64,000 nucleotides of DNA from positions 26,451 through 90,450 of the forward strand of contig JAAVBC010000010.1 in NCBI GenBank assembly GCA_014803765.1, read 5' to 3'. Each line of letters begins with the position of its first letter. Position 1 is the stretch's first letter. The position numbers and the translations under genes were made by a program. Below the pieces are notes generated by a model. The model did no database searches. It was not told the DNA's origin and was given only the letters and a program-made list of their open reading frames with translations. Source of the DNA: Bacteroides sp. (GTDB taxonomy: Bacteria; Bacteroidota; Bacteroidia; Bacteroidales; Muribaculaceae). Positions 26,310 to 56,169 of the stretch are shown here, in pieces.

Positions 26310-27602
26310 TTACTTTAAAAGACACGCATCTCCATAGCTGAGGAAACGATACCCATTGGCAAGCGCTTCATCATACAGCCTGCGCCATTCCGGCTCACCA
26401 GCCGCAATCTCTTCTTCACTTTTTTGGCGATCCAAAAAACTGCTGACGAGAAGCAGAAGTGTGGATTGGGGCTGATGAAAGTTAGTGACCATCCCTCCGA
26501 TTATTCTCCAGCGGAAACCCGGAGCTATCATGATAGAGGTGGAGGCGGAAAGCGCCTCAAGTCCTTTTGCCTTCAGTTCATCCCGAAGTTTGCGGAGGAG
26601 AGTCAGAGTGTCGTAAGCGGCAATATCCTCTGAATACGCCAGCCATTGCGGGAGATGCATTGCATTGACATCACTGACATCATGCGTCATCGCCAGCCAG
26701 CCGAAGTAGGGGAGTGATTCTATGGTACGCACTGAGGTTGTGCCGACTGCCATTATATTCCGCCCTTCCTCCATTGCTCTGATGATAGCTTCGATCACAG
26801 GAAGGTCGACATGGATTGTCTCCGTGTGCATGGGATGGTCGCCGATATTCTCACTTTTCACGGGCTGAAACGTGCCCGCACCGACATGCAGAGTCACTTT
26901 GCGTACTTCCACACCCTTCTCCGCGAGTCGCGAAAAGAGTTCGGGAGTAAAGTGTAAACCTGCCGTGGGAGCGGCTACGGATCCTTCGACACGGGAATAG
27001 ACCGTCTGATAATCCTGCAGATCGGATTCTTCTGAGGAGCGGTTGAGATATGGCGGTATGGGGATATTTCCGGCAGCCTCCACGACGGAAGCAAAAGTCA
27101 CGTCAGGATTATCCCAGCTGAATTTCACCCTACGGGACGCCGACGGCATCTCCCCCTCTTCAAGCGGCAGAAGACGCACAGTGAGTCTGACAGGCTCCTC
27201 CACTCCGGGGATATGGATAGTCTTGGTCAGTTCTTCCTCTTTCCATTTTTTCAGATTTCCTATCATACATGTCCACACACACTCATTGCGGGCGGCGAAG
27301 GAGAGGACATAATCGGAAGGGTCGACTGGTTCGAGGACAAACACCTCTATTCTGGCACCCGATTGACGAAAGAACTCCATGCGGGCATTGATGACTTTCG
27401 TCTCATTGCATAGCAGCAGTGTGCCGGGAGCGATGTATTCCGGAAGGGAGGAGAATATCTTATGCTCGATTTTTCCGTCCGGATGATGCACAATCATCTT
27501 GCAGGCGTCTCTCTGCGCAAGGGGATGCAGAGCGATTTTTTCATCCGGAAGAGGATAATCGAAATTTTCTATATGAATTTCTTTAATTTTTTCTAAGTTC
27601 AT
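26310..27602 (-). CDS. queA: S-adenosylmethionine:tRNA ribosyltransferase-isomerase
   Basis: DYQTVY, AAPTAGLHF, LHVGAGTF, TNFHQP and FLSYGD motifs. Confidence 0.97.
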   Translation of the reverse strand: MNLEKIKEIHIENFDYPLPDEKIALHPLAQRDACKMIVHHPDGKIEHKIFSSLPEYIAPGTLLLCNETKVINARMEFFRQSGARIEVFVLEPVDPSDYVLSFAARNECVWTCMIGNLKKWKEEELTKTIHIPGVEEPVRLTVRLLPLEEGEMPSASRRVKFSWDNPDVTFASVVEAAGNIPIPPYLNRSSEESDLQDYQTVYSRVEGSVAAPTAGLHFTPELFSRLAEKGVEVRKVTLHVGAGTFQPVKSENIGDHPMHTETIHVDLPVIEAIIRAMEEGRNIMAVGTTSVRTIESLPYFGWLAMTHDVSDVNAMHLPQWLAYSEDIAAYDTLTLLRKLRDELKAKGLEALSASTSIMIAPGFRWRIIGGMVTNFHQPQSTLLLLVSSFLDRQKSEEEIAAGEPEWRRLYDEALANGYRFLSYGDACLLK

Positions 27603-45892: not shown

Positions 45893-46072
45893 AGGCGATT
45901 CCGCGAGAGCGAGCAAAGCGAAGCTCAGCCCTATTCCGAGATAATTCCAAAATAACAGGAATAAATAACTGCTAAGAAAAAATTCCGCGAAAATTCAGCC
46001 AATTCCGTGACCGAAGGCATAAGGGGCGAAGCCCCTTGCCGATTCCGCGCGAACAATATTCTTTATAATTCC
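45893..46072 (+). repeat. Dispersed ~180-bp repeat family A, copy 1
   Basis: Near-identical to 47041-47222 (+) and to the reverse complements of 46791-46956 and 50936-51030. Confidence 0.9.
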
Positions 46073-46137
46073 AATTCATTAATCAAAACTATTCATTCAT
46101 AAACACACTAAATTCAAAGGCGAGTTAACAACCCGCG

Positions 46138-46790: not shown

Positions 46791-47222
46791 GGAATAATAA
46801 GGATGGTGGTTCGCGCGGAAACGGCTCGGGGCTGTCGCCCCATTGCCTTGGGTTGCGGAAATGGCGGATTTTTCGCGGAATATTTTATTGATTTTGGAAT
46901 GTATAGGAAGCGGATGGGGGCTGAGCATCGCTTCGCTCGCTGATGCGGAATCTGCCGGAGATTGTCAGATGAAAATTCGGCAGAGATTTTCCAAATCGCT
47001 TAAGGAATTTGATAGCAATATGCCATTCTTGATTTGCGGCAGGCGATTCCGCGAGAGCGAGCAAAGCGATGCTCAGCCCTATTCCGAGATAATTCCAAAA
47101 TAATCGGAGTAAATAACTCCCAAAAAATAAATTCCGCGAAAATTCCGCCATTTCCGCAACCCAAGGCAACGGGGCGACAGCCCCGAGCCGTTTCCGCGCG
47201 AACAAAAAATCCTTATAATTCC
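46791..47222. repeat. Family A copies 3 (-) and 2 (+) forming a ~430-bp inverted repeat
   Basis: 46791-46956 is the reverse complement (imperfect) of 47041-47222, with an ~85-nt spacer. Confidence 0.9.
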
Positions 47223-47563
47223 CCTTACCCAACCACACAAGATTAATGAAGAAGGAATATCATTGAGTGCAATGACTAATATAAGGATTGCTGAAAGTGG
47301 GATTGTTCTTGATTTAGGGCACACGAATTTTTTAATCCACTGATTATTATGGATTTCGATTTTTTACATTAAGATATCTTTTCCGGAAGGCTTGGATTCA
47401 CACTGACCCTGGGCTTCGCCTCGTGTATACCGGATTTCATGGATTTAGCACAAAAAGACGTCATTTCGCCATTGAGGATAATCCCTCCCTCAATAACACT
47501 GTAAATGTAGGGACGCACGGCTACTCAAAAAAAGTCATGCGCTTTATGGGATGTTTACCTAAG

Positions 47564-47610
47564 AAAAAAAGAAACTGCCCTCCGAATTTGAAATTCCCGA
47601 GGGCAGTTTT
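47564..47610 (-). terminator. Terminator for the 176aa/603aa operon
   Basis: AAACTGCCCTC...GAGGGCAGTTT hairpin preceded by an A tract on +. Confidence 0.8.
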
Positions 47611-47733
47611 ATTAATGGTAGCTAAAATGAGTATGTATTTTTTTACCCCGATAAGCGAAATTAATAATCATTCGCCTTTACGATGTAAATCTATAGCTTT
47701 TTTAATACCCATAGCAACAATTTAATTTCCGGC

Positions 47734-49545
47734 TTATTCCGCCCAGGAAGGCACGAAACTCTTATCGTTGCTAAGTACTATCACATCTCTGTCTCCACCG
47801 GCATCTTTTAGCATTAGCCATAAAACGCCATTGAAGTCAGACTCCAAATACGTATTGGCATGATTTATTTTACTATTATTATATACTTGCTGTTCAATAT
47901 TAAAGTATATAGGAGTATTATCTTGTGTACCAATATTAAATTTATCCCAGTATGCATCTGTAACTTTGAAAGTCTCCCCTGCACGAATACATTGCTCGTC
48001 GGAACAAACAAATCTAAATATACCATTCCCTAAGTTCTCAAGTTCCCACGCTTCATCACTCCCCCAAGAATTCATATCTCTTCGTAGATAAAGAGGAGTA
48101 TTCCATGTGGGTGTGGGGTTCGGTGTGGTGGTTGAGAGTATAATTTTAGAAAGATCCAGAGACACCTTTATTACATAATTGCCCACCCAGGGACATTCAA
48201 TATTAAAAAACGGAGACTCCAAAGTTACCTCAACATCAGGTGTGTCACCATAATTACATCCTAAACTTCCATCGTTAAATTGATCCCAATCTCCGCGAGC
48301 TGTAGACAATCTGAATTTACTTAGATTATTTACTTTATATACATACCATCCATCTTCCACTCTGAACCGATCCGGAGTTTCAGGATTCCATTCTCCTTTA
48401 ACAAAATCACCGGCTCCGGTGATGTAAAGGGGAGCAGCCGGTTGGGGGGTATATAAAAAGCAGGCATCTATCTCAATATTTGTGCCGGTTAAACCACCCG
48501 ACAACAGAGAAAGAATATTTCCCGTCCAGGGTTTTGACAGATCTCCTAAGTTAAAATCAGGACACACCCTTTTTAATTCACCAATAGAAATATCCACAAC
48601 CTGCCAATTTTTATTAGGGGCAGGTGCAATTGACGGATACAATGCGCCACCATCATTAAATGGTTCTCCTAAAGAGAATTTTGCTGAACGAGCACCAGCG
48701 TCGTATGTACCCCCATCTAATAGAATGATACATTGCGACTTAACAGCCGGTTCGCTATTTGAACGATAGGCAAAATGAATTCTCGTATTATCATTAATCA
48801 TTGAGAAATCCTTACCTTTCGTAAAGCTCGGTCCAATAGAGTATCCACAACCACTCCAACCTTGATTTCCTACAGTAAGTGAAAGATAATCATATCCCCC
48901 ATCTATTCCCGGAGAAGTGGGTTCATTTTCAATGTAGGTATTTTCCCAAATCCAAAAATTACAATCTTCATCCTCCTTCCAATCTAAATCTAAATATTCT
49001 ATATTTCTTTTCTTTATTTCAGTCCTAACTTTATCATCGGCTTGGATTAATATCATATTATCCAGATGGCGATTAAAAATTTCCATTGTAGACTCAGATA
49101 GCTCTCCGTATACGGGGGGATTAGAGGGGAGTGTGGCAGCGACAGAAGATGTATAGCCGCTTTCCACTCCGTTTACCACAGCTTTTACGCGATAAAAGTT
49201 AGACCCTGACAAGGGTTGGCTATCAGTATACGTTGTCTGCGTCAGCTCGGATGCAATAAGGGTAAATTCTACATTGTCCGGCGAACGATATACATTGTAG
49301 GTTGCTCCGTCTACAGCACCCCACGTGATAGTGATCTGATTTTCACCGACAGAAGCATTGATCTCTTCGGGTGCTTCAATCAGGTCATTAACTTCAATAT
49401 AGTCAATATCCGCAACATTATATTCTTGAATGACCTCGCCATTGCGGAATATCTGCAATACTTTGTCTCTCTTGGCAAATGCAAATAGTGATAGCACTGC
49501 CATTATTCCTATAAGAAAAGTTCTATTCTTGTAAAATCGTCTCAT
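47734..49545 (-). CDS. Exported multidomain protein: short N-terminal beta module, FN3 domain, CBM-like domain and SusE/F-like starch/glycan-binding repeats; no T9SS CTD
   Basis: Signal peptide. FN3 pattern ITWGAVDGATYNVYRS...YTD...YRVKAV. PLYITG..W and LYLR.DMNSW modules. AT-rich coding sequence. Confidence 0.7.
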   Translation of the reverse strand: MRRFYKNRTFLIGIMAVLSLFAFAKRDKVLQIFRNGEVIQEYNVADIDYIEVNDLIEAPEEINASVGENQITITWGAVDGATYNVYRSPDNVEFTLIASELTQTTYTDSQPLSGSNFYRVKAVVNGVESGYTSSVAATLPSNPPVYGELSESTMEIFNRHLDNMILIQADDKVRTEIKKRNIEYLDLDWKEDEDCNFWIWENTYIENEPTSPGIDGGYDYLSLTVGNQGWSGCGYSIGPSFTKGKDFSMINDNTRIHFAYRSNSEPAVKSQCIILLDGGTYDAGARSAKFSLGEPFNDGGALYPSIAPAPNKNWQVVDISIGELKRVCPDFNLGDLSKPWTGNILSLLSGGLTGTNIEIDACFLYTPQPAAPLYITGAGDFVKGEWNPETPDRFRVEDGWYVYKVNNLSKFRLSTARGDWDQFNDGSLGCNYGDTPDVEVTLESPFFNIECPWVGNYVIKVSLDLSKIILSTTTPNPTPTWNTPLYLRRDMNSWGSDEAWELENLGNGIFRFVCSDEQCIRAGETFKVTDAYWDKFNIGTQDNTPIYFNIEQQVYNNSKINHANTYLESDFNGVLWLMLKDAGGDRDVIVLSNDKSFVPSWAE

Positions 49546-49547
49546 GA

Positions 49548-50078
49548 TTACTTAATAATGAATTTCAGGTTCAAATTTGATTCGCTATTGGAAGCTACAG
49601 CTATATATACACCCTCTGCCAGCGCCTCCAAACTTAGAGTTTGTCCGCCGGAAAGTGACGATGTGGCGATCAGTACGCCCTTAAAGTCAAAAATTCCCAA
49701 AGAGAAGGGGATTGTGGAACTTGATTCTAATGTCAGCAACTTATCCTCGGAATTATAAGAAAGTTTATTTCCAATGACAGAATCCAATTCTTCCATTCCG
49801 GTAATGATAGATGGCGTACCCTCTCCAATTTCAATATGATGAAAGAGGGAATAGAGTAACGGGGTAGGATCGGACATCGAATCCTTGGAGCTTATCAGCA
49901 TTTCATTCTCTCCAAAGCTGACACGATTAGTTTGCGCAAGATCAAATAATTGGGGAATATCGGAATTACCGGTGAATATCAGACAAGGCACAGTTTCCTG
50001 AGCACCGCCCACTCCCGAACCGAACAATAACGATAATCCTGCGAGCAAACCCGAACTAAATACAGATCTTCGTCTCAT
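49548..50078 (-). CDS. Small secreted protein with T9SS type-A C-terminal domain
   Basis: Signal peptide and a short beta domain. C-terminus IFDFKGVLI...LSLEALAEGVYIAVAS...LKFIIK. Confidence 0.8.
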   Translation of the reverse strand: MRRRSVFSSGLLAGLSLLFGSGVGGAQETVPCLIFTGNSDIPQLFDLAQTNRVSFGENEMLISSKDSMSDPTPLLYSLFHHIEIGEGTPSIITGMEELDSVIGNKLSYNSEDKLLTLESSSTIPFSLGIFDFKGVLIATSSLSGGQTLSLEALAEGVYIAVASNSESNLNLKFIIK

Positions 50079-50137
50079 TAAATCAGGCAGATGCTTCGGG
50101 TTCCCCTCCTCAGCGTGTTAGGTTAACATTAAACAAG

Positions 50138-50400
50138 AAAAAGCGTAGGAATCTGTATCATTGCCGTCCTACGTTCTGAGGCTTCTCGCATTGCCCATCA
50201 ATAGTCGGACGGCAACCGCAGAAGCCCACGCTCGTATATGCAATAATGCCATCCGGCTATATTCCTCCCGGAATATCATGCCGAATGCAAGATAATCACA
50301 TATCCACGGGCATCTACCGTTGCTCAATCTCTGACTATTGATAGAAATTTTGCGAGAATTTCAGAACGTCAAAGAATCAGCGCGGATAAACGCTTTTTAT
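50138..50400 (-). ncRNA. Putative structured cis-regulatory leader RNA (copy 1)
   Basis: Long interrupted hairpin: 50171-50190 pairs with 50351-50369, and 50197-50206 pairs with 50333-50342. Alternative terminator-like pairing of 50141-50149 with 50225-50232. Confidence 0.65.
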
Positions 50401-50490
50401 AAATAAATCAATATCCGATATTTCGGATATCATCTACTTCCCGCCACACTTTACCCTTTCGTGGGGTTCTGCGTTACCGGTTAGTGCTCA

Positions 50491-50522
50491 CAAAATTAAT
50501 ATTTTCTCATCTATCCTCCAAA
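50491..50522 (-). promoter_or_regulatory. Sigma-A promoter driving leader 1 and the T9SS module
   Basis: TTTG (50522-50519), a 20-nt spacer, then TAATTTTG (50498-50491). Confidence 0.75.
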
Positions 50523-50548
50523 ATTATTCCGATTTTTAGAGAATTTTT

Positions 50549-50840
50549 AGAGAGTGTTTGAATTTAGACTCTCTTAATACATTAATCCGAAATGCCATAG
50601 GGGAATAATATTCCCGCTTCCGAATTCTCTAAAATCCCTCACTCAGGGACAAATTCCGACAAAAACATCCCTCACTCAGGGATAAAAGAAACATATTTTT
50701 AGACTAAAGCGCGTAAACACATATCTTTCAGACACATATAAATATATTTATTTAGACAGAAGCTTGGGGCTTTTCTTTTTAGACATATGCACATAAGCAC
50801 ATAAGACACATAATTTATTCTATTTATGAGCCTTATGTAC
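50549..50840 (-). pseudogene. Internally deleted copy of the AAA-ATPase cassette
   Basis: 50549-50627 matches 51977-52055 and encodes EFGSGNIIPLWHFGLMY*. It is joined directly to a copy of the ATPase upstream region (~53200-53442). Confidence 0.9.
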
Positions 50841-50935
50841 ACATGAGTATTATGGGCCTTATTATGGGCCTTATTATGGGTCTATTGTCTAAAAAGAAAA
50901 ACGTTTGCATCTGACAGGGTACTGCGCTTCGGATT

Positions 50936-51030
50936 AGAATTGTAAAGAATGTGGTTCGCGCGGAATCGGCAAGGGGCTTAGCCCTTTATGCCTTCGGTCG
51001 CGGAAATAGCGGAATTTTCGCGGAATTCTT
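50936..51030 (-). repeat. Repeat family A, copy 4 (3' half, same subtype as copy 1)
   Basis: The reverse complement matches the 3' half of copy 1 (~45980-46072), including CCGAAGGCATAA.GGGC.AAGCCCCTTGCCGATTCCGCGCGAAC. Confidence 0.9.
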
Positions 51031-51114
51031 TCTTTGCAAATTTATATTCCCCTAAATTTTTTAGCGGATATTAATAAAAATAAAAAATATGTGCCACATG
51101 TCTGAGAAAGGAGA

Positions 51115-51146
51115 TCGGGACCGCATTTATCCAGATGCGGTCCCGA
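51115..51146. terminator. Strong hairpin, probable terminator
   Basis: Perfect 12-bp stem TCGGGACCGCAT-TTATCCAG-ATGCGGTCCCGA. Confidence 0.65.
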
Positions 51147-51384
51147 CAACGACATAGTTAGATGGTATATAGTGAGGGATAATATTTTTAAGAATTCTTT
51201 AGTATAACCGGAAGAATCCTCTATGATTACAACTCCCATTAATGTCAACCTACACGGAAGTTTTTCGATGTGACATTCTTATAAGTTTTTAGATTGCAAA
51301 GATAGGGAATCCGTGAATTAAAATCTTGAAATAGTGTCTTATAAGATTATACAGACTGTGGCGAGATTTTATACTCTATTCTTA

Positions 51385-51606
51385 TTAATCCTTATGGTGG
51401 TGGTAATCGTTAGAAAGATCTTCGAAAAAATCGTGGTCTAATATTCTGCTGAGTCGTTCAAGTAAAGCTGTGTCAATTGTAGGACGTCGGAAAATGTCAT
51501 AGATGTTGGTGCGATTGCAGTTGAGCTGAATTGCAAGCCACGTAGCGTTATGACCTTTTGGTTGCTGATCAAAAACCTCTTTTATTCGTTTGCCGATATG
51601 TAACAT
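51385..51606 (-). CDS. Small XRE/Cro-like HTH DNA-binding protein
   Basis: HIGKRIKE...TWLAIQLNCNRTNIYDIFRRPTIDTALLERLSRILDHDFF, a typical Bacteroidales small HTH. Confidence 0.88.
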   Translation of the reverse strand: MLHIGKRIKEVFDQQPKGHNATWLAIQLNCNRTNIYDIFRRPTIDTALLERLSRILDHDFFEDLSNDYHHHKD

Positions 51607-51661
51607 AGTGATCTCGGAATGACCATGATCGTTCCCTATTGGTCGACTGACGGACGATGGT

Positions 51662-51890
51662 AAAAAAAGAAGACGTGGAACGATGTTCAGTTTATCTCAC
51701 ATCAGGCATCGCCAAACGCCTCTTACAGAATAAACAGTCCACTCCCACGCCTTGTCCGATATAGCGGCACACCCCCTTGCCGGGGGAGTGGACATTACAC
51801 GGCAAGCTAAGGAGCGTTTAGACTGCTTTATCTTCTGCAAATGAAATTGGCGATTTCGATGTGAAAGACAAAGCAAAAAACGCTTCTTGA
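51662..51890 (-). ncRNA. Putative structured cis-regulatory leader RNA (copy 2)
   Basis: 51697-51715 pairs with 51847-51864. Alternative pairing of 51672-51680 with 51742-51751, followed by a U tract. Confidence 0.65.
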
Positions 51891-51923
51891 CAAAAATGAA
51901 GAAAACACTATCGTTTTCAAAAG

Positions 51924-51955
51924 CAAATATACTAAAAATTACACATGTACACAAA
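51924..51955 (-). promoter_or_regulatory. Sigma-A promoter driving leader 2 and the HTH gene
   Basis: TTTG (51955-51952), a 20-nt spacer, then TATATTTG (51931-51924). Confidence 0.75.
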
Positions 51956-52001
51956 AATCCTGTACGAAGTCTGATAAGAGAGTGTTTGAATTTAGACTCT
52001 C

Positions 52002-53174
52002 TTAATATATTAATCCGAAATGCCATAGAGGAATAATATTCCCGCTTCCGAATTCTATATCATCTTTTACTATATAGCCATTAGGATCCCCTTCAAGCTG
52101 ACGCTGCCCCTTATTCTTTCCGCCGACTTCAAATATCTTATCTCCAATTTTGAAATCGGCAATTCGGGATGTTCTGACTGCTGAAGTGACCCGGACTTGA
52201 TTCTGAAAAAAGGTTTCTCGAACATTCCCGATATCTGTCCCCACACCTGCCAGTGCATACATGAAATTCGGATTATCAAGATATAATTTTTCAACTTTCC
52301 CCAAGCTGCGCAACCCGTTAGTGTCATCCCGAAGCAATGATATCATACCTGCCCTTTCCAATAGACTTAGATATTCGGGGAGAGTATTCTTGCTTACCCC
52401 CACTTCTACGGCAAGTTTCTCAATGCTCGGCTTATATGGCGCAAGATTTGACAGAACTCCAAGTAATTGTTTGAGCTTACGGGCAGTAGTTGCCATCATA
52501 TCAGCAAAAAGCGGAATGTCGGTCTCTACGGTTTGGGAGATTATCTGATTGAGTCTCATTCCGAATTCAGGCTCGTGAGAGAAGGGGAAGTAGCCCGTCT
52601 GCAAATATTGATGGAAATCGGGGAGGGGGTGAGGAATCTCCGGGAGATCCACTCTATGTTCCAGAATCTCTTGAAGAGTATAGGGAGCAATCTCCACACC
52701 CTTATAGAGTCCTAAATACTCGCGAAAGGATAATCCTTGTATATGAAACATTAAGGCTCTTCTGCTGAGATCTGCCTCACCCTTTTTAATATCAAGGATG
52801 GAGCTTCCGGTAAAAATTACCTGCAATTCGGGAAGTGTGTCATGGATCTGCTTAAGCTCTTTCGACCAATTCTTATATTTATGAATCTCATCAATTACGA
52901 GAAAATTTCTACCCGACTTCACCATTTCATTAGCCAATTCGAGCAGGGAATGAGTAGAGAAATAGATATTATCGGCATCTACATATAGACTTCTATCAGG
53001 ATCCCGCTGCAGAATCTTCTGAAGAACAAGAGTGGATTTACCGACACCTCGAGGACCTGTCAGACCGATCAAGCGCGCATTATCAGGCAACTTATCATAC
53101 ACATATCTTCGAAAAGAGGTAGGAGTATGACGCAGGATTTGCCTCATTGTATGGAAAAGTGTATTATCAATCAT
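52002..53174 (-). CDS. AAA_14-type ATPase with C-terminal DUF4143-like (wHTH + PD-(D/E)xK-like) region
   Basis: Walker A GPRGVGKST, Walker B VIDEIH, TGSS, DLSRR, EKLYLDNPN, RETFF and DF..FEVGGK motifs. ATG at 53174 is preferred over the TTG at 53201. Confidence 0.9.
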   Translation of the reverse strand: MIDNTLFHTMRQILRHTPTSFRRYVYDKLPDNARLIGLTGPRGVGKSTLVLQKILQRDPDRSLYVDADNIYFSTHSLLELANEMVKSGRNFLVIDEIHKYKNWSKELKQIHDTLPELQVIFTGSSILDIKKGEADLSRRALMFHIQGLSFREYLGLYKGVEIAPYTLQEILEHRVDLPEIPHPLPDFHQYLQTGYFPFSHEPEFGMRLNQIISQTVETDIPLFADMMATTARKLKQLLGVLSNLAPYKPSIEKLAVEVGVSKNTLPEYLSLLERAGMISLLRDDTNGLRSLGKVEKLYLDNPNFMYALAGVGTDIGNVRETFFQNQVRVTSAVRTSRIADFKIGDKIFEVGGKNKGQRQLEGDPNGYIVKDDIEFGSGNIIPLWHFGLIY

Positions 53175-53203
53175 ACCACAAATATAGTAAAATTCCCCCA
53201 AAA

Positions 53204-53284
53204 TCCCTCACTCAGGGACAAATTCCGACAAAAACCTCCCTCACTCAGGGATAGATTTCGATAAAAACATCCCTCACTCAGGGA
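53204..53284. repeat. Three palindromic 15-mers TCCCTCACTCAGGGA at a 33-bp period (two more at 50635 and 50668)
   Basis: Exact copies at 53204, 53237 and 53270. Confidence 0.95.
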
Positions 53285-53310
53285 CAAAAGAAACATATTT
53301 ATAGACAGAA

Positions 53311-53515
53311 GCACATAAGCACATATATTTCAGACATATAATAAATATATTTATTTAGACAATAGCATGGGGCTTTTCTTTCTGACATAAGCACATAAGC
53401 ACATAAGACACATAATTTATTGTACTTATGAGCCTTATGTACTTATGTGCCTTATGTGCCTTATGTGCTTATGTGCTTATGTGCTTATGTCAAAAAAACT
53501 TATGTGTTTATGTAT
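53311..53515. repeat. Inverted arrays of 8-9-mer repeats (GCACATAA / CTTATGTG)
   Basis: GCACATAA units at ~53311-53415 face CTTATGTG(C) units at ~53425-53512. A shorter version lies at 50783-50840. Confidence 0.9.
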
Positions 53516-53560
53516 AAGAAAAATATGTGCATATGTCTAAGAAAAATATGGGGCGTATGT

Positions 53561-54157
53561 CTAAGGGAGGGTGACGCGGACGATGTATTCGTCGGGGGTC
53601 GCGGCAAGGACCTCCGTGGAGAATCCCCACGTGCGGATGCGGTCAGCAAGGAGCGCAGGGGAGGGGAGAAGATCACTCTCGGCATGACGATCCCCATGTA
53701 TGTTATTGATGAAGTTTTCATCTGAAGGGAAGGCTATGAATATCTTTCCGCCGGGCTTCAGATTCATCTTGAAGAGCCATCGCATCGTCTCCTCCGGTGA
53801 ATGAAGATGGGGATAGACTGAATAGAGCAACGCTATATCATAAATCCCCGGAATCTGCTCTTCCTCAAAATCCAGTCGCAGAAACTCCACATTCCTTAAA
53901 TCTCCGTACTTCTGCCGCGCAATTCCCAACATCCCTTCCGACATATCCAGTCCGACAACTTTCCCCGACTCCCCGACCATTTCGGAAAGATAGGGAGCCA
54001 ACACCCCCGTGCCCGTCCCGAGATCCAACACACTCATCCCACTCTCAATACCCATCTTCCCCAATATCGAACGAATACGCTCCGGAGTCGAACGAACCTC
54101 TGCCGCATCCCATTCAGGAGCCAAAGCATCAAAAAAATCTATCTCTGACTGATTCAT
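53561..54157 (-). CDS. Class I SAM-dependent methyltransferase
   Basis: FFDALAPEWD, VLDLGTGTGVL, DMSEGML and YPH motifs. Confidence 0.92.
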   Translation of the reverse strand: MNQSEIDFFDALAPEWDAAEVRSTPERIRSILGKMGIESGMSVLDLGTGTGVLAPYLSEMVGESGKVVGLDMSEGMLGIARQKYGDLRNVEFLRLDFEEEQIPGIYDIALLYSVYPHLHSPEETMRWLFKMNLKPGGKIFIAFPSDENFINNIHGDRHAESDLLPSPALLADRIRTWGFSTEVLAATPDEYIVRVTLP

Positions 54158-54205
54158 ATAATTCTCTAAACTTAATTTTCAGTGATTATTTTTCTTTTAT
54201 AATAA

Positions 54206-54253
54206 CAAAATTAACCTAAATAAAGTTAATATTGAAATTTTTTACTAACTTTG
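54206..54253. promoter_or_regulatory. Divergent overlapping promoters with a central dyad
   Basis: TAATTTTG on - (54213-54206), TAACTTTG on + (54246-54253), and ATTAAC-N9-GTTAAT at 54210-54230. Confidence 0.6.
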
Positions 54254-54288
54254 TCGCCATAACTTTCAGAAATTATATACCCCAAAAC

Positions 54289-56169
54289 ATGGACAAAAAC
54301 ATTCCCTCCCTTTTATTCGCGATGATAGCAGGCTCCATTGCTGCTACTCACGCCGCTGAAGCTCCTCGCGACACGACCAACCTCGGAGAACTCGTTGTGA
54401 CAGCTCCGTTGAAGACCAATCCTGACCTCATCCCACTGAACGTAACGCAGGTCAGCGCATCTGAGATCGAAAAATCGGGGGAGAGTTCACTACTCCCGGT
54501 ACTCGTAGCGAAAGTGCCCGGTCTATTCGTCACGGAACGCGGATTCGCCGGCTATGGTGTGTCGGGCGGTAGCGCCGGAAGCGTCAATATCCGCGGAGTA
54601 GGACAGGGGAATCAAGTGCTCTTCATGATTGATGGTCAGCCTCAGTGGGCAGGAGTATTCGGACATTCCCTTGCCGACACATACGTCGCCAATGGGGTCG
54701 AGAAGGTCGAAGTAGTGAAAGGTCCATCTTCGCTCCTATATGGTTCCAACGCGATGGGCGGGTCAATCAACCTGGTCACTCACACACAGACAAAGGATGG
54801 ACTGACAGGCAGAGCCCGCGCCATGTTCGGCTCATTCTCCACACAGAAATTCGCACTATCATCAGGCTATAAGAAAGATCGCTTTTCCGCAACTCTTTCC
54901 GGTCAGCTTGATCGCAGCAACGGCAACCGCGCCGGGAGCGCTTTCTGGCTTGCCAACGAATTCCTGCAGCTGAAATACGCCGTCTCCGACCACTGGAGTA
55001 TAGCCGGAATGCTCGACATGACGCAAAGCCATGCCAATAATCCGGGTACACTCCAGGATCCCCTTGAAAATATGTGGACCGACATATTCCGCGGCACAGG
55101 CGGCATCTATGTAAAGAATAGTTACAAAAAGGCTGATGGCGGCATACAGGGCTATATCAACTGGGGACGCCATAATGTTGATGACGGAAATACCCCCGGA
55201 ACGACACCTCGCGACTATCTATTCCATTCTACAGACTATAACATGGGCTTCACTGCCTATGAATCCCTCTACCTCTGGCAAGCCAACACACTCTCTGCCG
55301 GAATCGATTTCCAACATTGGGGAGGACATGTCTGGAACACCGACAAAGCGGATGAATCCATCCGATCTTCAGAGGCAACCCATCATGTAAATGAAATAGC
55401 GGGCTACGTCATGATGCAGCAGGGCTTCTTCAACGATATTCTGAACATCAACGGCGGCGTACGCCTTCAGCACGGCTCGACATACGGTAATGTCTGGGTT
55501 CCCCAAGCAGGCTTTATCGTCCGCCCGGGTCACTCTTCTCAGATAAAGGGTTCATTCAGCAAGGGATTCCGTTCGCCCAACATCCGCGAACTCTATCTCT
55601 ATCCCCCCGCAAATCCCGACCTTAAGCCGGAATATATGCTCAACTATGAATTAAGCTATCGCCAGCATTTTCTCAACTATCGGCTGATGGTCGGAGCCGC
55701 ACTATTCTTTATCGATGCCCGCGACATGATTCAGACAGTACGCATCGACGGACGCCCCCGCAATGTCAACACCGGCAAATTCCACAACAAAGGTTTTGAA
55801 ATTGAGGCGGCATATTCCATCCTTTCCAACCTCTCGGCAAATGCGTCCTGGTCCTACCTCCACACTGACTCCGACACCAACCTCTATTCCCCGAAGAATA
55901 AACTGAACGCTGAGCTGACATACTCTCCCGGTCCCTGCAGTTTCACTCTTGAGGAAATGAGTATCTGGGGGATGAAGAACGGGAATCCCGACGGAAGTTC
56001 AACAGCATATTCATTACTCAACTTCCGCGCAGCCTATACACTCGGAAAGACTGTGCCGGTCACTCTCTCCGTAAAGGTCGACAACATCACCAACAAACAC
56101 TATCAGATAATCTACGGATGCCCGATGCCGGGGACTACCATCATGGGTGGCGTCGAATTCAAGTTCTGA
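54289..56169 (+). CDS. TonB-dependent receptor (BtuB/CirA-like, probable metal/cofactor uptake)
   Basis: TonB box ELVVTA, plug IRG...MIDG...VEVVKGPSSLLYGSNAMGGSIN, NPDLKPE and a C-terminal F. Start at 54289 lies downstream of the promoter. Confidence 0.93.
   Translation: MDKNIPSLLFAMIAGSIAATHAAEAPRDTTNLGELVVTAPLKTNPDLIPLNVTQVSASEIEKSGESSLLPVLVAKVPGLFVTERGFAGYGVSGGSAGSVNIRGVGQGNQVLFMIDGQPQWAGVFGHSLADTYVANGVEKVEVVKGPSSLLYGSNAMGGSINLVTHTQTKDGLTGRARAMFGSFSTQKFALSSGYKKDRFSATLSGQLDRSNGNRAGSAFWLANEFLQLKYAVSDHWSIAGMLDMTQSHANNPGTLQDPLENMWTDIFRGTGGIYVKNSYKKADGGIQGYINWGRHNVDDGNTPGTTPRDYLFHSTDYNMGFTAYESLYLWQANTLSAGIDFQHWGGHVWNTDKADESIRSSEATHHVNEIAGYVMMQQGFFNDILNINGGVRLQHGSTYGNVWVPQAGFIVRPGHSSQIKGSFSKGFRSPNIRELYLYPPANPDLKPEYMLNYELSYRQHFLNYRLMVGAALFFIDARDMIQTVRIDGRPRNVNTGKFHNKGFEIEAAYSILSNLSANASWSYLHTDSDTNLYSPKNKLNAELTYSPGPCSFTLEEMSIWGMKNGNPDGSSTAYSLLNFRAAYTLGKTVPVTLSVKVDNITNKHYQIIYGCPMPGTTIMGGVEFKF

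Follow-up and report, generated by a model that had tools for sequence, protein, structure and literature searches.

A Bacteroidales-wide family of rod-shaped 5′ leader RNAs as candidate zipper-type transcription attenuators

The locus described here raises the question of whether two minus-strand leaders that differ in sequence and precede unrelated genes belong to a single RNA family and, if so, what such an RNA does. Both lie in a 64,000-nt stretch of Bacteroides sp. DNA (Muribaculaceae; assembly GCA_014803765.1, contig JAAVBC010000010.1, forward-strand positions 26,451 to 90,450), which is referred to as the window and whose numbering is used throughout. A reading made from the letters alone, without database searches (the sequence-only reading), had placed the leaders at 50138-50400 and 51662-51890. 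It had proposed that they share one architecture, can form a terminator-like helix that excludes another pairing, and represent a cis-regulatory RNA family of no known riboswitch class. In our follow-up analysis, both leaders were found to belong to one Bacteroidales-wide family of structured 5′ leaders of about 400 nt, hereafter called rod leaders. From the anatomy of these leaders, we consider it probable that they act in cis as zipper-type transcription attenuators. The scale of the family, a third pairing partner (M1) of the central hub strand, and a hairpin 14 nt before each ATG go beyond the earlier reading.

A strand-specific RNA rod and its distribution

Pattern matching recovered every motif listed by the sequence-only reading, including both TTTG-N20-TAnnTTTG promoters, at its place on the minus strand (Table 1). 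To compare the two leaders, a covariance model, R1, was built from 26 leader-1-like rods, and leader 2 was not used. In a search of the whole window with filters off, the R1 match to leader 2 extended over its full length and covered model positions 1-267 (34.7 bits, E 3.1e-9), and the only match at E < 0.001 besides leaders 1 and 2 was the reverse strand of leader 1. The GAAAU/stem/GCCU architecture of both leaders coincided in the R1 alignment, which bears out the claim of a shared architecture despite differing sequence. We therefore regard leader 2, on this sequence match, as a divergent member of the leader-1 family without the 5′ module M1.

Both stretches were predicted to fold into imperfect rods of about 250 nt, with energies of -110.5 kcal/mol (z -7.1) for leader 1 and -87 kcal/mol (z -6.4) for leader 2, and none of 200 shuffled sequences folded as well. 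Covariation was quantified in alignment A4, which contains 97 distinct copies and was fitted to the R1 model, a caveat that applies to all covariation figures derived from it. In A4, 96.1% of 7643 rod-pair cells were standard pairs, compared with 37-49% in slid-partner controls. Double changes were found in 64 of the 83 rod pairs and compensation in 1173 cells, values that none of 500 shuffles reached. The closing helix AAAGCGU:ACGCUUU was paired in 95.7% of cells, with double changes in four of its eight pairs. The same picture was obtained with MAFFT and RNAalifold, independently of the model (23 of 77 rod pairs compensated). R1 scored leader 1 at 279.4 bits on the transcribed strand versus 28.1 bits on the opposite strand, and the rod contained many conserved G.U pairs in A4. 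Since a double-stranded DNA palindrome would not behave in this manner, the rod is a genuine strand-specific RNA structure. Two segments of the rod, 5 bp and 7-8 bp in length, were hypervariable: all four Watson-Crick pair types occurred in them, and G.U pairs and mispairs were rare. The blocks on either side of them do not vary, even from one bacterial family to another.

The search for homologues by covariance model that the sequence-only reading had called for thus yielded statistically strong covariation, and it also revealed a large family. The source genome (assembly 58% complete) contained three close copies, two of them paralogues of leader 1 with 83-86% identity, and four more divergent copies detected by R1, leader 2 not counted. 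The conserved block began exactly at AAGCGTTT and ended right after CCTACGCTTTTT. In the genus, 21 of 24 other genomes had one to nine copies by blastn, several of them at contig ends. A scan of GTDB with one genome per species for exact matches to 18 hub bases gave at least 120 stretches, of which 80 were retrieved, and R1 found a full rod in 71 of these 80. The titles of the matching entries included Muribaculaceae, Bacteroidaceae, Prevotella, Paraprevotella clara, Hallella faecis, Phocaeicola oris, Barnesiella, Parabacteroides, and Paludibacteraceae. When the order was sampled evenly and stricter filters were used, matches were obtained in 16 of the 148 high-quality genomes. From the order sample and the many families in the GTDB scan, we conclude that the family is wide but patchy across Bacteroidales.

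At Rfam 15 gathering thresholds, only tRNAs passed in the window, and with E up to 10 nothing relevant overlapped either leader over 47000-55000. The Rfam 15 search of the leaders revealed no known aptamer class or T-box features, in agreement with the earlier statement that no known class fits; a new riboswitch class is conceivable. No published description of the family was found in the literature. Identity with the FopS/GibS small RNAs (sRNAs) of Bacteroides was considered and rejected, as these constitute a separate family of short sRNAs. The 441-nt leader gave no blastn match to GenBank phages or PLSDB plasmids. An exact-motif scan of IMG/VR returned nine contigs, only one of which carried a full rod (L208:389-638, UViG 3300021319_000137, 85.7 kb, 136 bits); the other eight were not rods. 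Full-length rods (134-289 bits) were also observed on four contigs of metagenome-assembled genomes titled Roseburia, Oribacterium, Pseudoflavonifractor, and Staphylococcus (L057, L068, L070, and L088, respectively), which are most likely mis-binned Bacteroidales contigs.

The conserved unit and the three partners of its hub

Alignment A2, which comprises 25 copies with their flanks, showed that the conserved unit spans about 400 nt from promoter to ATG. The functional unit thus exceeds the limits first given for the leaders and extends over 50522-50079 for leader 1 and 51955-51607 for leader 2. Its elements occur in the order TAnnTTTG box, M1, optional M2, rod, U tract, 15-25 nt spacer, M4, and ATG. 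M1 comprises GCAGAAGCCCC, a small CCCC/GGGG hairpin, and a G-rich motif. The stem of the hairpin stays paired in variant copies (CCCG/CGGG and CCCA/UGGG), and no consistent pairing partner was found for the G-rich motif. M2 is a small variable hairpin of some copies only, and M4 is a small hairpin with a purine-rich loop whose end lies exactly 14 nt from the ATG in both leaders of the window. A TAnnTTTG box was present within 180 nt upstream on the same strand in 110 of 116 copies (17 of 116 on the opposite strand) at a median distance of 66 nt from the rod, and a co-oriented open reading frame (ORF) started within 260 nt in 60 of 68 loci. The U tract followed T′, the 3′ strand of the terminator hairpin, exactly in nearly all copies. 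The proposal of a cis-regulatory RNA family is upheld by these arrangements together with the number of copies and the strong covariation. No conserved leader peptide was seen by eye in the alignments of the 5′ region, although no dedicated search was made; a peptide starting from the AUG-UAG of some copies was dropped as a candidate, the AUG-UAG not being conserved by eye.

Besides the rod, the leaders can adopt a second fold. Forcing AGCGUGGG:CCUACGCU in leader 1 produced three hairpins, namely the 5′ arm, the apex, and the 3′ arm. The 3′ halves alone had predicted energies of -43.4 and -31.1 kcal/mol in leaders 1 and 2, directly followed by UUUUU and U7, respectively. Over the 97 copies, the helices of the 3′ hairpin were 89-98% paired (AGCGUGGG:CCUACGCU, 97.7%; UCUG:CAGA, 93.8%; UUGCCGUCC:GGACGGCAA, 89-91% with compensated cells present; GGC:GCC, 98.6%) and those of the 5′ arm 88-97%, percentages that are inflated by the derivation of the alternative structure from one of the sequences. 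The GCGUGGG:CCUACGC helix of the sequence-only reading could likewise form in 97.7% of cells, and divergent copies showed matched changes in hub and T′ (GUGUGGG/CCCACAC, GCGUGAG/CUCACGC, and GCGGGGG/CUCCCGC). At loci L189 and L203, the change is three-way: T′ reads CCCACAC, the hub GUGUGGG, and the 5′ closing strand GUGU, so that both folds remain possible there. In leader 1, the final bases of T′ also close the rod by pairing with the 5′ AAAGCGU. Within the limits of these model-based alignments, covariation supports the alternative fold, in which the 3′ hairpin would serve as an intrinsic terminator. A 7-bp stem, UCUCGCA/UGCGAGA, that flanks the hypervariable segments is nearly invariant; in the alternative fold, its two strands occupy two hairpin loops, and kissing between them is possible.

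The hub, a segment of the 3′ arm (AGCGUGGGCUUCUGCG in leader 1), has a third potential partner. M1 is the reverse complement of the 3′ part of the hub (GCAGAAGCCC versus GGGCUUCUGC); in leader 1, CGCAGAA-C-CCCACG faces CGUGGG-C-UUCUGCG. A complementary stretch scoring at least 8 was found within 115 nt upstream in 69% of 94 distinct copies, compared with 6.8% for shuffled upstream sequence. Unusual hubs were accompanied by matching M1 strands (CAGUUAGCCC/GGGCUAACUG, AAACCGGCUC/GGGCCGGUUU, UCAGUCGGCCCG/UGGGCUGACUGA, and GCAGAAGUCUC/GAGGCUUCUGC), and 12 of the 37 copies of a diverse set had an M1 partner specific to their own hub, where about four were expected. Some copies carried CCCACGCC-type strands that pair with the 5′ part of the hub instead. 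For a nascent leader 1 transcript reaching the end of the hub, the minimum free energy (MFE) structure was M1:hub, with the 5′ arm and apex folded locally.

A further complementarity may connect the terminator with the start codon: in the rod, the terminator 3′ strand has an unpaired 5′ half, and this half is complementary to the M4 loop. In leader 2, it is AUCGUUCC (51684-51677) of T′ that can pair with the loop sequence GGAACGAU (51635-51628), as seen in the unconstrained MFE structure, and locus-specific variants of the two strands were observed (GCGACCC/GGGUUGC, CGGCUCUC/GAGAGCCG, and ACAGAUUCCC/GGGAGUCUGU). As a separate observation, GAUACAGAUU in the leader 1 terminator strand (50150-50159) could form a 10-bp helix with two G.U pairs with GAUCUGUAUU (50059-50068), which corresponds to codons 4-7 of the 176-aa ORF; this helix may be due to chance or may represent a link to translation.

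This anatomy matches that of cATT, an attenuator of Bacillus subtilis plasmid pLS20 that was shown experimentally to be of the zipper type (Gonzalez-Alvarez et al., Nucleic Acids Res 2026, PMC13401043). In cATT, a weak stem-loop on the 5′ side and a terminator on the 3′ side frame a long central stem, and complementarity between the 5′ and 3′ segments allows the stem to zip and thereby remove the terminator (PMC13401043). Both leaders are long (456 nt in cATT and about 400 nt in the rod leader), and in both the central stem-loop is long and imperfect; they share the weak 5′ stem-loop, the 3′ intrinsic terminator, and 5′/3′ complementarity that can extend the stem and abolish the terminator. 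In silico, the rod leaders show the zipper features of a central stem-loop, a terminator with a U tract before the gene, and a 5′ segment complementary to the terminator 3′ strand. They are therefore read as probable cis-acting attenuators. However, the two are unrelated in sequence and occur in different phyla; cATT serves Gram-positive conjugation operons, whereas the rod leader precedes many unrelated accessory genes of Bacteroidales and occurs in 2-9 copies per genome. The rod leader also adds M1 as a third hub partner and a hairpin at the translation start. Attenuation was proven for cATT, whereas we infer it for the rod leader.

In the proposed mechanism, pairing of the hub with the 5′ arm would zip the whole element into the 250-nt rod, the last helix being formed by 5′ AAAGCGU and 3′ ACGCUUU. 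Pairing with the downstream CAGAUUCCUACGCU would instead generate a strong hairpin followed by the U tract, that is, an intrinsic terminator, while the 5′ arm and apex would fold separately. Pairing with the upstream M1 (GCAGAAGCCC type), which is transcribed first and is found in most copies including leader 1, is the proposed early antiterminator. If M1 or the 5′ arm occupied the hub by the time the polymerase arrives at the U tract, read-through into the cargo gene would follow; a free hub would let the terminator form, with release of a short RNA. The complementarity of the M4 loop to the terminator 3′ strand may couple the fold to translation. As for the signal, our guess is a host factor, either protein or RNA, that is conserved and targets M1 or the invariant internal loops.

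Several points weigh against this mechanism. Both termination at the U tract and the default state of the switch are predicted from the sequence. The rod was thermodynamically favoured in both leaders by 6 kcal/mol (-149.6 for the rod versus -143.7 kcal/mol for the terminator fold in leader 1, and -101.1 versus -94.7 for the forced terminator in leader 2), and a driver of the terminator fold is not indicated. Column-wise covariation of the terminator helix was weak, with two double changes in A4, because its bases are nearly invariant, and the pairing percentages of the alternative fold are inflated as noted above. In the diverse alignment, which was fitted to the rod and in which the register of the terminator helix drifts, this helix was 81.7% paired, with 17 compensated cells versus 6.7 in shuffles (reached in 1 of 500 shuffles); we therefore relied on register-free scans, which are less formal. 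Leader 2 and some other copies lack M1, and M1 is therefore not essential. Pairing between T′ and the M4 loop was modestly above controls (8 of 37 copies specific, with about four expected) and is therefore treated as a lead. Lastly, a conserved partner gene was not found.

The same features bear on two other RNA-level explanations. One is that the leader controls expression only after transcription: the rod would stabilise the 5′ end, be a substrate of RNase III, or control translation, and the U tract would not terminate. The rod is the MFE fold of both leaders, its long near-perfect helices with strictly Watson-Crick variable segments resemble substrates of double-strand RNases, and the hairpin 14 nt before the ATG falls in the ribosome binding region. 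A plain rod, however, needs neither self-complementarity within its arms nor the hub:T′ and hub:M1 pairings, and the U tract exactly after T′ in nearly all copies would be left unexplained, so that we regard this explanation as unlikely. The other is that the unit is an sRNA gene, or has a dual function, with an RNA ended at the U tract (about 330 nt) or at M2 (about 100 nt) acting in trans; its targets might be read-through mRNAs of the family, reached via T′ and the loop of the start-codon hairpin. The presence of a promoter of its own, a strong terminator-like hairpin, and locus-specific variants in the T′/M4-loop complementarity fit such an RNA. An sRNA of comparable length is BTnc163, an intergenic RNA of Bacteroides thetaiotaomicron VPI-5482 (3765732-3765834) that is listed as a primary transcript of 102 nt with its own start site and a PM1 promoter (Ryan et al. 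2020, PMC7366714); such an extent would suit a stretch running from the transcription start via M1 to M2, and no published function was found for this sRNA. The fixed distance and orientation to the downstream ORF and the position of the hairpin 14 nt before the ATG point to action in cis, the excess of the complementarity over controls is the modest one given above, and the candidate seed would be buried within the terminator stem of the terminated RNA. A trans-acting sRNA thus appears quite improbable, and zipper-type attenuation in cis is the reading retained below.

Cargo genes and genomic context

The genes behind the rod leaders are unrelated, often encode surface proteins, and lie in AT-rich islands. 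Of the labels given earlier to the cargo in the window, that of a type IX secretion system (T9SS) module held for the 176-aa protein downstream of leader 1 only, and that of a small helix-turn-helix gene for the 73-aa protein downstream of leader 2 had no Pfam or NCBIfam support. For the 603-aa protein encoded after cargo gene 1, a search of 60 other genomes of the genus gave only domain-level relatives and not one full-length orthologue. At 23 loci of the genus, the first downstream ORFs showed no detectable mutual similarity. Across 68 loci of the order, one downstream protein cluster was recurrent (19 loci), and its Pfam-scanned members were BspA-type leucine-rich repeat (LRR) proteins. Among 20 sampled cargo proteins, Pfam identified two plain LRR_5 proteins, one C10 peptidase with LRR, one TM2 protein, one LytTR protein, and one FG-GAP/PKD protein of 1925 aa with a T9SS tail, and the other 14 had no Pfam family. 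By a crude test, 34 of 60 cargo proteins were apparently secreted. Both leaders of the window lie within a 6-kb island of 36-42% GC, with flanks of about 50%.

Table 1. Features of the two rod leaders and their cargo genes in the window
Feature	Position	Strand	Basis or remark
Leader 1, whole unit, promoter to ATG	50522-50079	(-)	
Leader 1 promoter, TTTG-N20-TAATTTTG, Bacteroidota -33/-7 type	50491..50522	(-)	pattern match
Leader 1 M1 strand, CGCAGAA-C-CCCACG	50460..50473	(-)	complementary to hub: 13 bp and one C.C mismatch
Leader 1 M1 local hairpin, CCCC-ACGAAA-GGG, and conserved G-rich motif GGCGGGAAGUAG	50434..50466	(-)	alignment A2
Leader 1 M2, optional small hairpin, 10 bp, A/U-rich tail	50409..50432	(-)	terminator-like match; only some copies
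Leader 1 rod, about 255 nt, AAAAAGCGUUUAUCC to CCUACGCUUUUU	50139..50398	(-)	covariance model R1
Leader 1 5′ motif, AAGCGTTT	50395-50388	(-)	pattern match
Leader 1 hypervariable segment 1	50368-50364/50176-50172		A4 columns 54-58/414-418
Leader 1 8-bp stem, TTCTCGCA with TGCGAGAA	50358-50351 with 50190-50183	(-)	pattern match
Leader 1 hypervariable segment 2	about 50341-50335/50203-50197		A4 columns 94-100/379-386
Leader 1 hub H, AGCGUGGGCUUCUGCG	50217..50232	(-)	three alternative partners
Leader 1 GCGTGGG in hub	50231-50225	(-)	pattern match
Leader 1 hub partner, 5′ arm	50318-50304		rod
Leader 1 hub partner, T′	50156-50142		terminator
Leader 1 hub partner, M1			see M1 strand
Leader 1 T′ strand, ACAGAUUCCUACGCU, and U tract	50131..50156	(-)	3′ side of terminator hairpin
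Leader 1 CCTACGC, then T tract	50149-50143	(-)	pattern match
Leader 1 3′ hairpin M4, GCU-GAGGAGGGGAACCCGA-AGC	50093..50114	(-)	14 nt ahead of ATG at 50078
Cargo gene 1, 176-aa protein, T9SS type A sorting domain	49548..50078	(-)	TIGR04183, 24.8 bits, cut-off 23
603-aa gene after cargo gene 1	47734-49545		
Leader 2, whole unit, promoter to ATG	51955-51607	(-)	
Leader 2 promoter, TTTG-N20-TATATTTG	51924..51955	(-)	pattern match
Leader 2 rod and U tract, without M1	51662..51890	(-)	divergent family member
Leader 2 5′ motif, AAGCGTTT	51885-51878	(-)	pattern match
Leader 2 8-bp stem, ATCGCCAA with TTGGCGAT	51854-51847 with 51715-51708	(-)	pattern match
Leader 2 hub, GGCGUGGGA	51751-51743	(-)	
Leader 2 GCGTGGG	51750-51744	(-)	pattern match
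Leader 2 T′, UUCCACGUC	51680-51672	(-)	
Leader 2 TCCACGT, then T tract	51679-51673	(-)	pattern match
Leader 2 3′ hairpin M4, GACCA-loop-UGGUC	51621..51644	(-)	14 nt ahead of ATG at 51606
Cargo gene 2, 73-aa protein, no family assignment	51385..51606	(-)	Pfam, NCBIfam

The genomic setting bears on whether the element acts at the level of DNA, as a miniature inverted-repeat transposable element (MITE)-like palindrome or as a folded single-strand recombination site of the type of integron attC or of the repeats of rAID (recombinase-associated acquired interbacterial defence). The family is multicopy with several copies at contig ends, is patchy across families yet very highly conserved in sequence, and precedes unrelated, often AT-rich cargo; conserved intergenic motifs have also been described for rAID systems (PMC12247911). 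Its orientation, however, is non-random, as seen from the same-strand promoters and co-oriented ORFs counted above, its conserved G.U pairs make the fold strand-specific, and the promoter belongs to the unit. Each 8-kb locus contained a single copy and no arrays, and no shared upstream neighbour family or recombinase was conserved in the 68 loci. The two tyrosine recombinase genes (PF00589) of the source genome, as assembled to 58% completeness, were located on contigs without a copy (C13 and C17). MITEs and repetitive extragenic palindromic (REP)-like elements would be expected in either orientation, with an equally good fold on both strands, and the adjacent tyrosine recombinase and tandem cassettes of integron attC and rAID arrays are lacking around the rod leaders. 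rAID resembles them in having a conserved non-coding sequence ahead of diverse short, low-GC, horizontally acquired Bacteroidales genes (PMC12247911), but it is defined by a tyrosine recombinase and a co-oriented gene array (PMC12247911), whereas rod leaders occur singly at scattered loci that lack a neighbouring recombinase. The rAID/integron cassette idea, which had been considered because the cargo genes are unrelated and AT-rich, was dropped on finding no arrays, no shared upstream gene, and no tyrosine recombinase nearby, and a DNA-level role in general is considered very improbable.

Other repeats were observed around the leaders. The region 50549-50862 is a deleted mini-copy of an AAA_14/DUF4143 ATPase cassette at 51977-53464, in which the 3′ end of the gene and its terminator hairpin (92% identical) are joined to the upstream region (84-93% identical). 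A leader promoter follows directly downstream of the mini-copy, and another directly downstream of the intact cassette. Inverted repeats of 127 nt at 45949-46075 and 50933-51059, which are 84% complementary, and rich in TTCCGCG, bracket 4.9 kb of DNA. Within these 4.9 kb lie leader 1 with both cargo genes, the ATPase mini-copy, and a portion of a mosaic of non-coding repeats; additional copies of the inverted repeat were found at 46791-46889 and 47121-47203. The bracketed 4.9-kb segment may be a mobile or recombining module. Short repeats of the ACATAAGCACATAAG type (53385-53482 and 50783-50813) form a 31-nt palindrome, 97% complementary, upstream of the ATPase gene, recur in the mini-copy, and cause spurious Rfam microRNA matches. 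A 104-nt unit with the palindrome TCCCTGAGTGAGGGA occurs with 33-bp spacing over the ATPase promoter region (53204-53340) and once in the mini-copy (50635-50738). At another copy in the source genome (L003, contig C10:17141-17405, 9 kb before the window), about 395 nt that contain no ORF separate the rod from the next gene, which looks housekeeping (purT-like), as judged from its N-terminal sequence only; the original cargo of this leader may have been lost.

Relation to other regulators and implications

Like trp and his attenuators, riboswitch platforms, and T-box leaders, the rod leader combines mutually exclusive helices on one strand with a terminator and U tract between promoter and ORF. 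It differs from these classical attenuators in being a 250-nt rod without a compact aptamer or a match in Rfam. A more far-reaching and doubtful extension of the zipper-type attenuator is that the leader is a portable RNA gate, which would travel with horizontally acquired Bacteroidales genes and place them under one host-wide signal. The three-partner hub would then read a conserved host factor, and the hypervariable segments would be per-copy barcodes. As barcodes, these Watson-Crick segments would keep paralogous leaders in one cell from cross-zipping despite their shared UCUCGCA/UGCGAGA loops.

Little is known of RNA-based regulation in Bacteroidales, which are dominant in the mammalian gut and, to our knowledge, lack Hfq and CsrA. 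The present analysis describes in this order a large covarying RNA family that is absent from Rfam and stands ahead of surface proteins (BspA-type LRR proteins, a C10 peptidase, and T9SS cargo) and orphan accessory genes, and the R1 family model permits annotation of the leader across thousands of genomes. If the zipper-type reading is true, this form of attenuation would be extended from Gram-positive plasmids to another phylum. If the portable gate exists, it would represent a new RNA-level taming of foreign genes, in a role comparable to xenogeneic silencing. If the leader gates the genes that it precedes, it would control a sizeable share of the variable, host-facing gene set of these bacteria.

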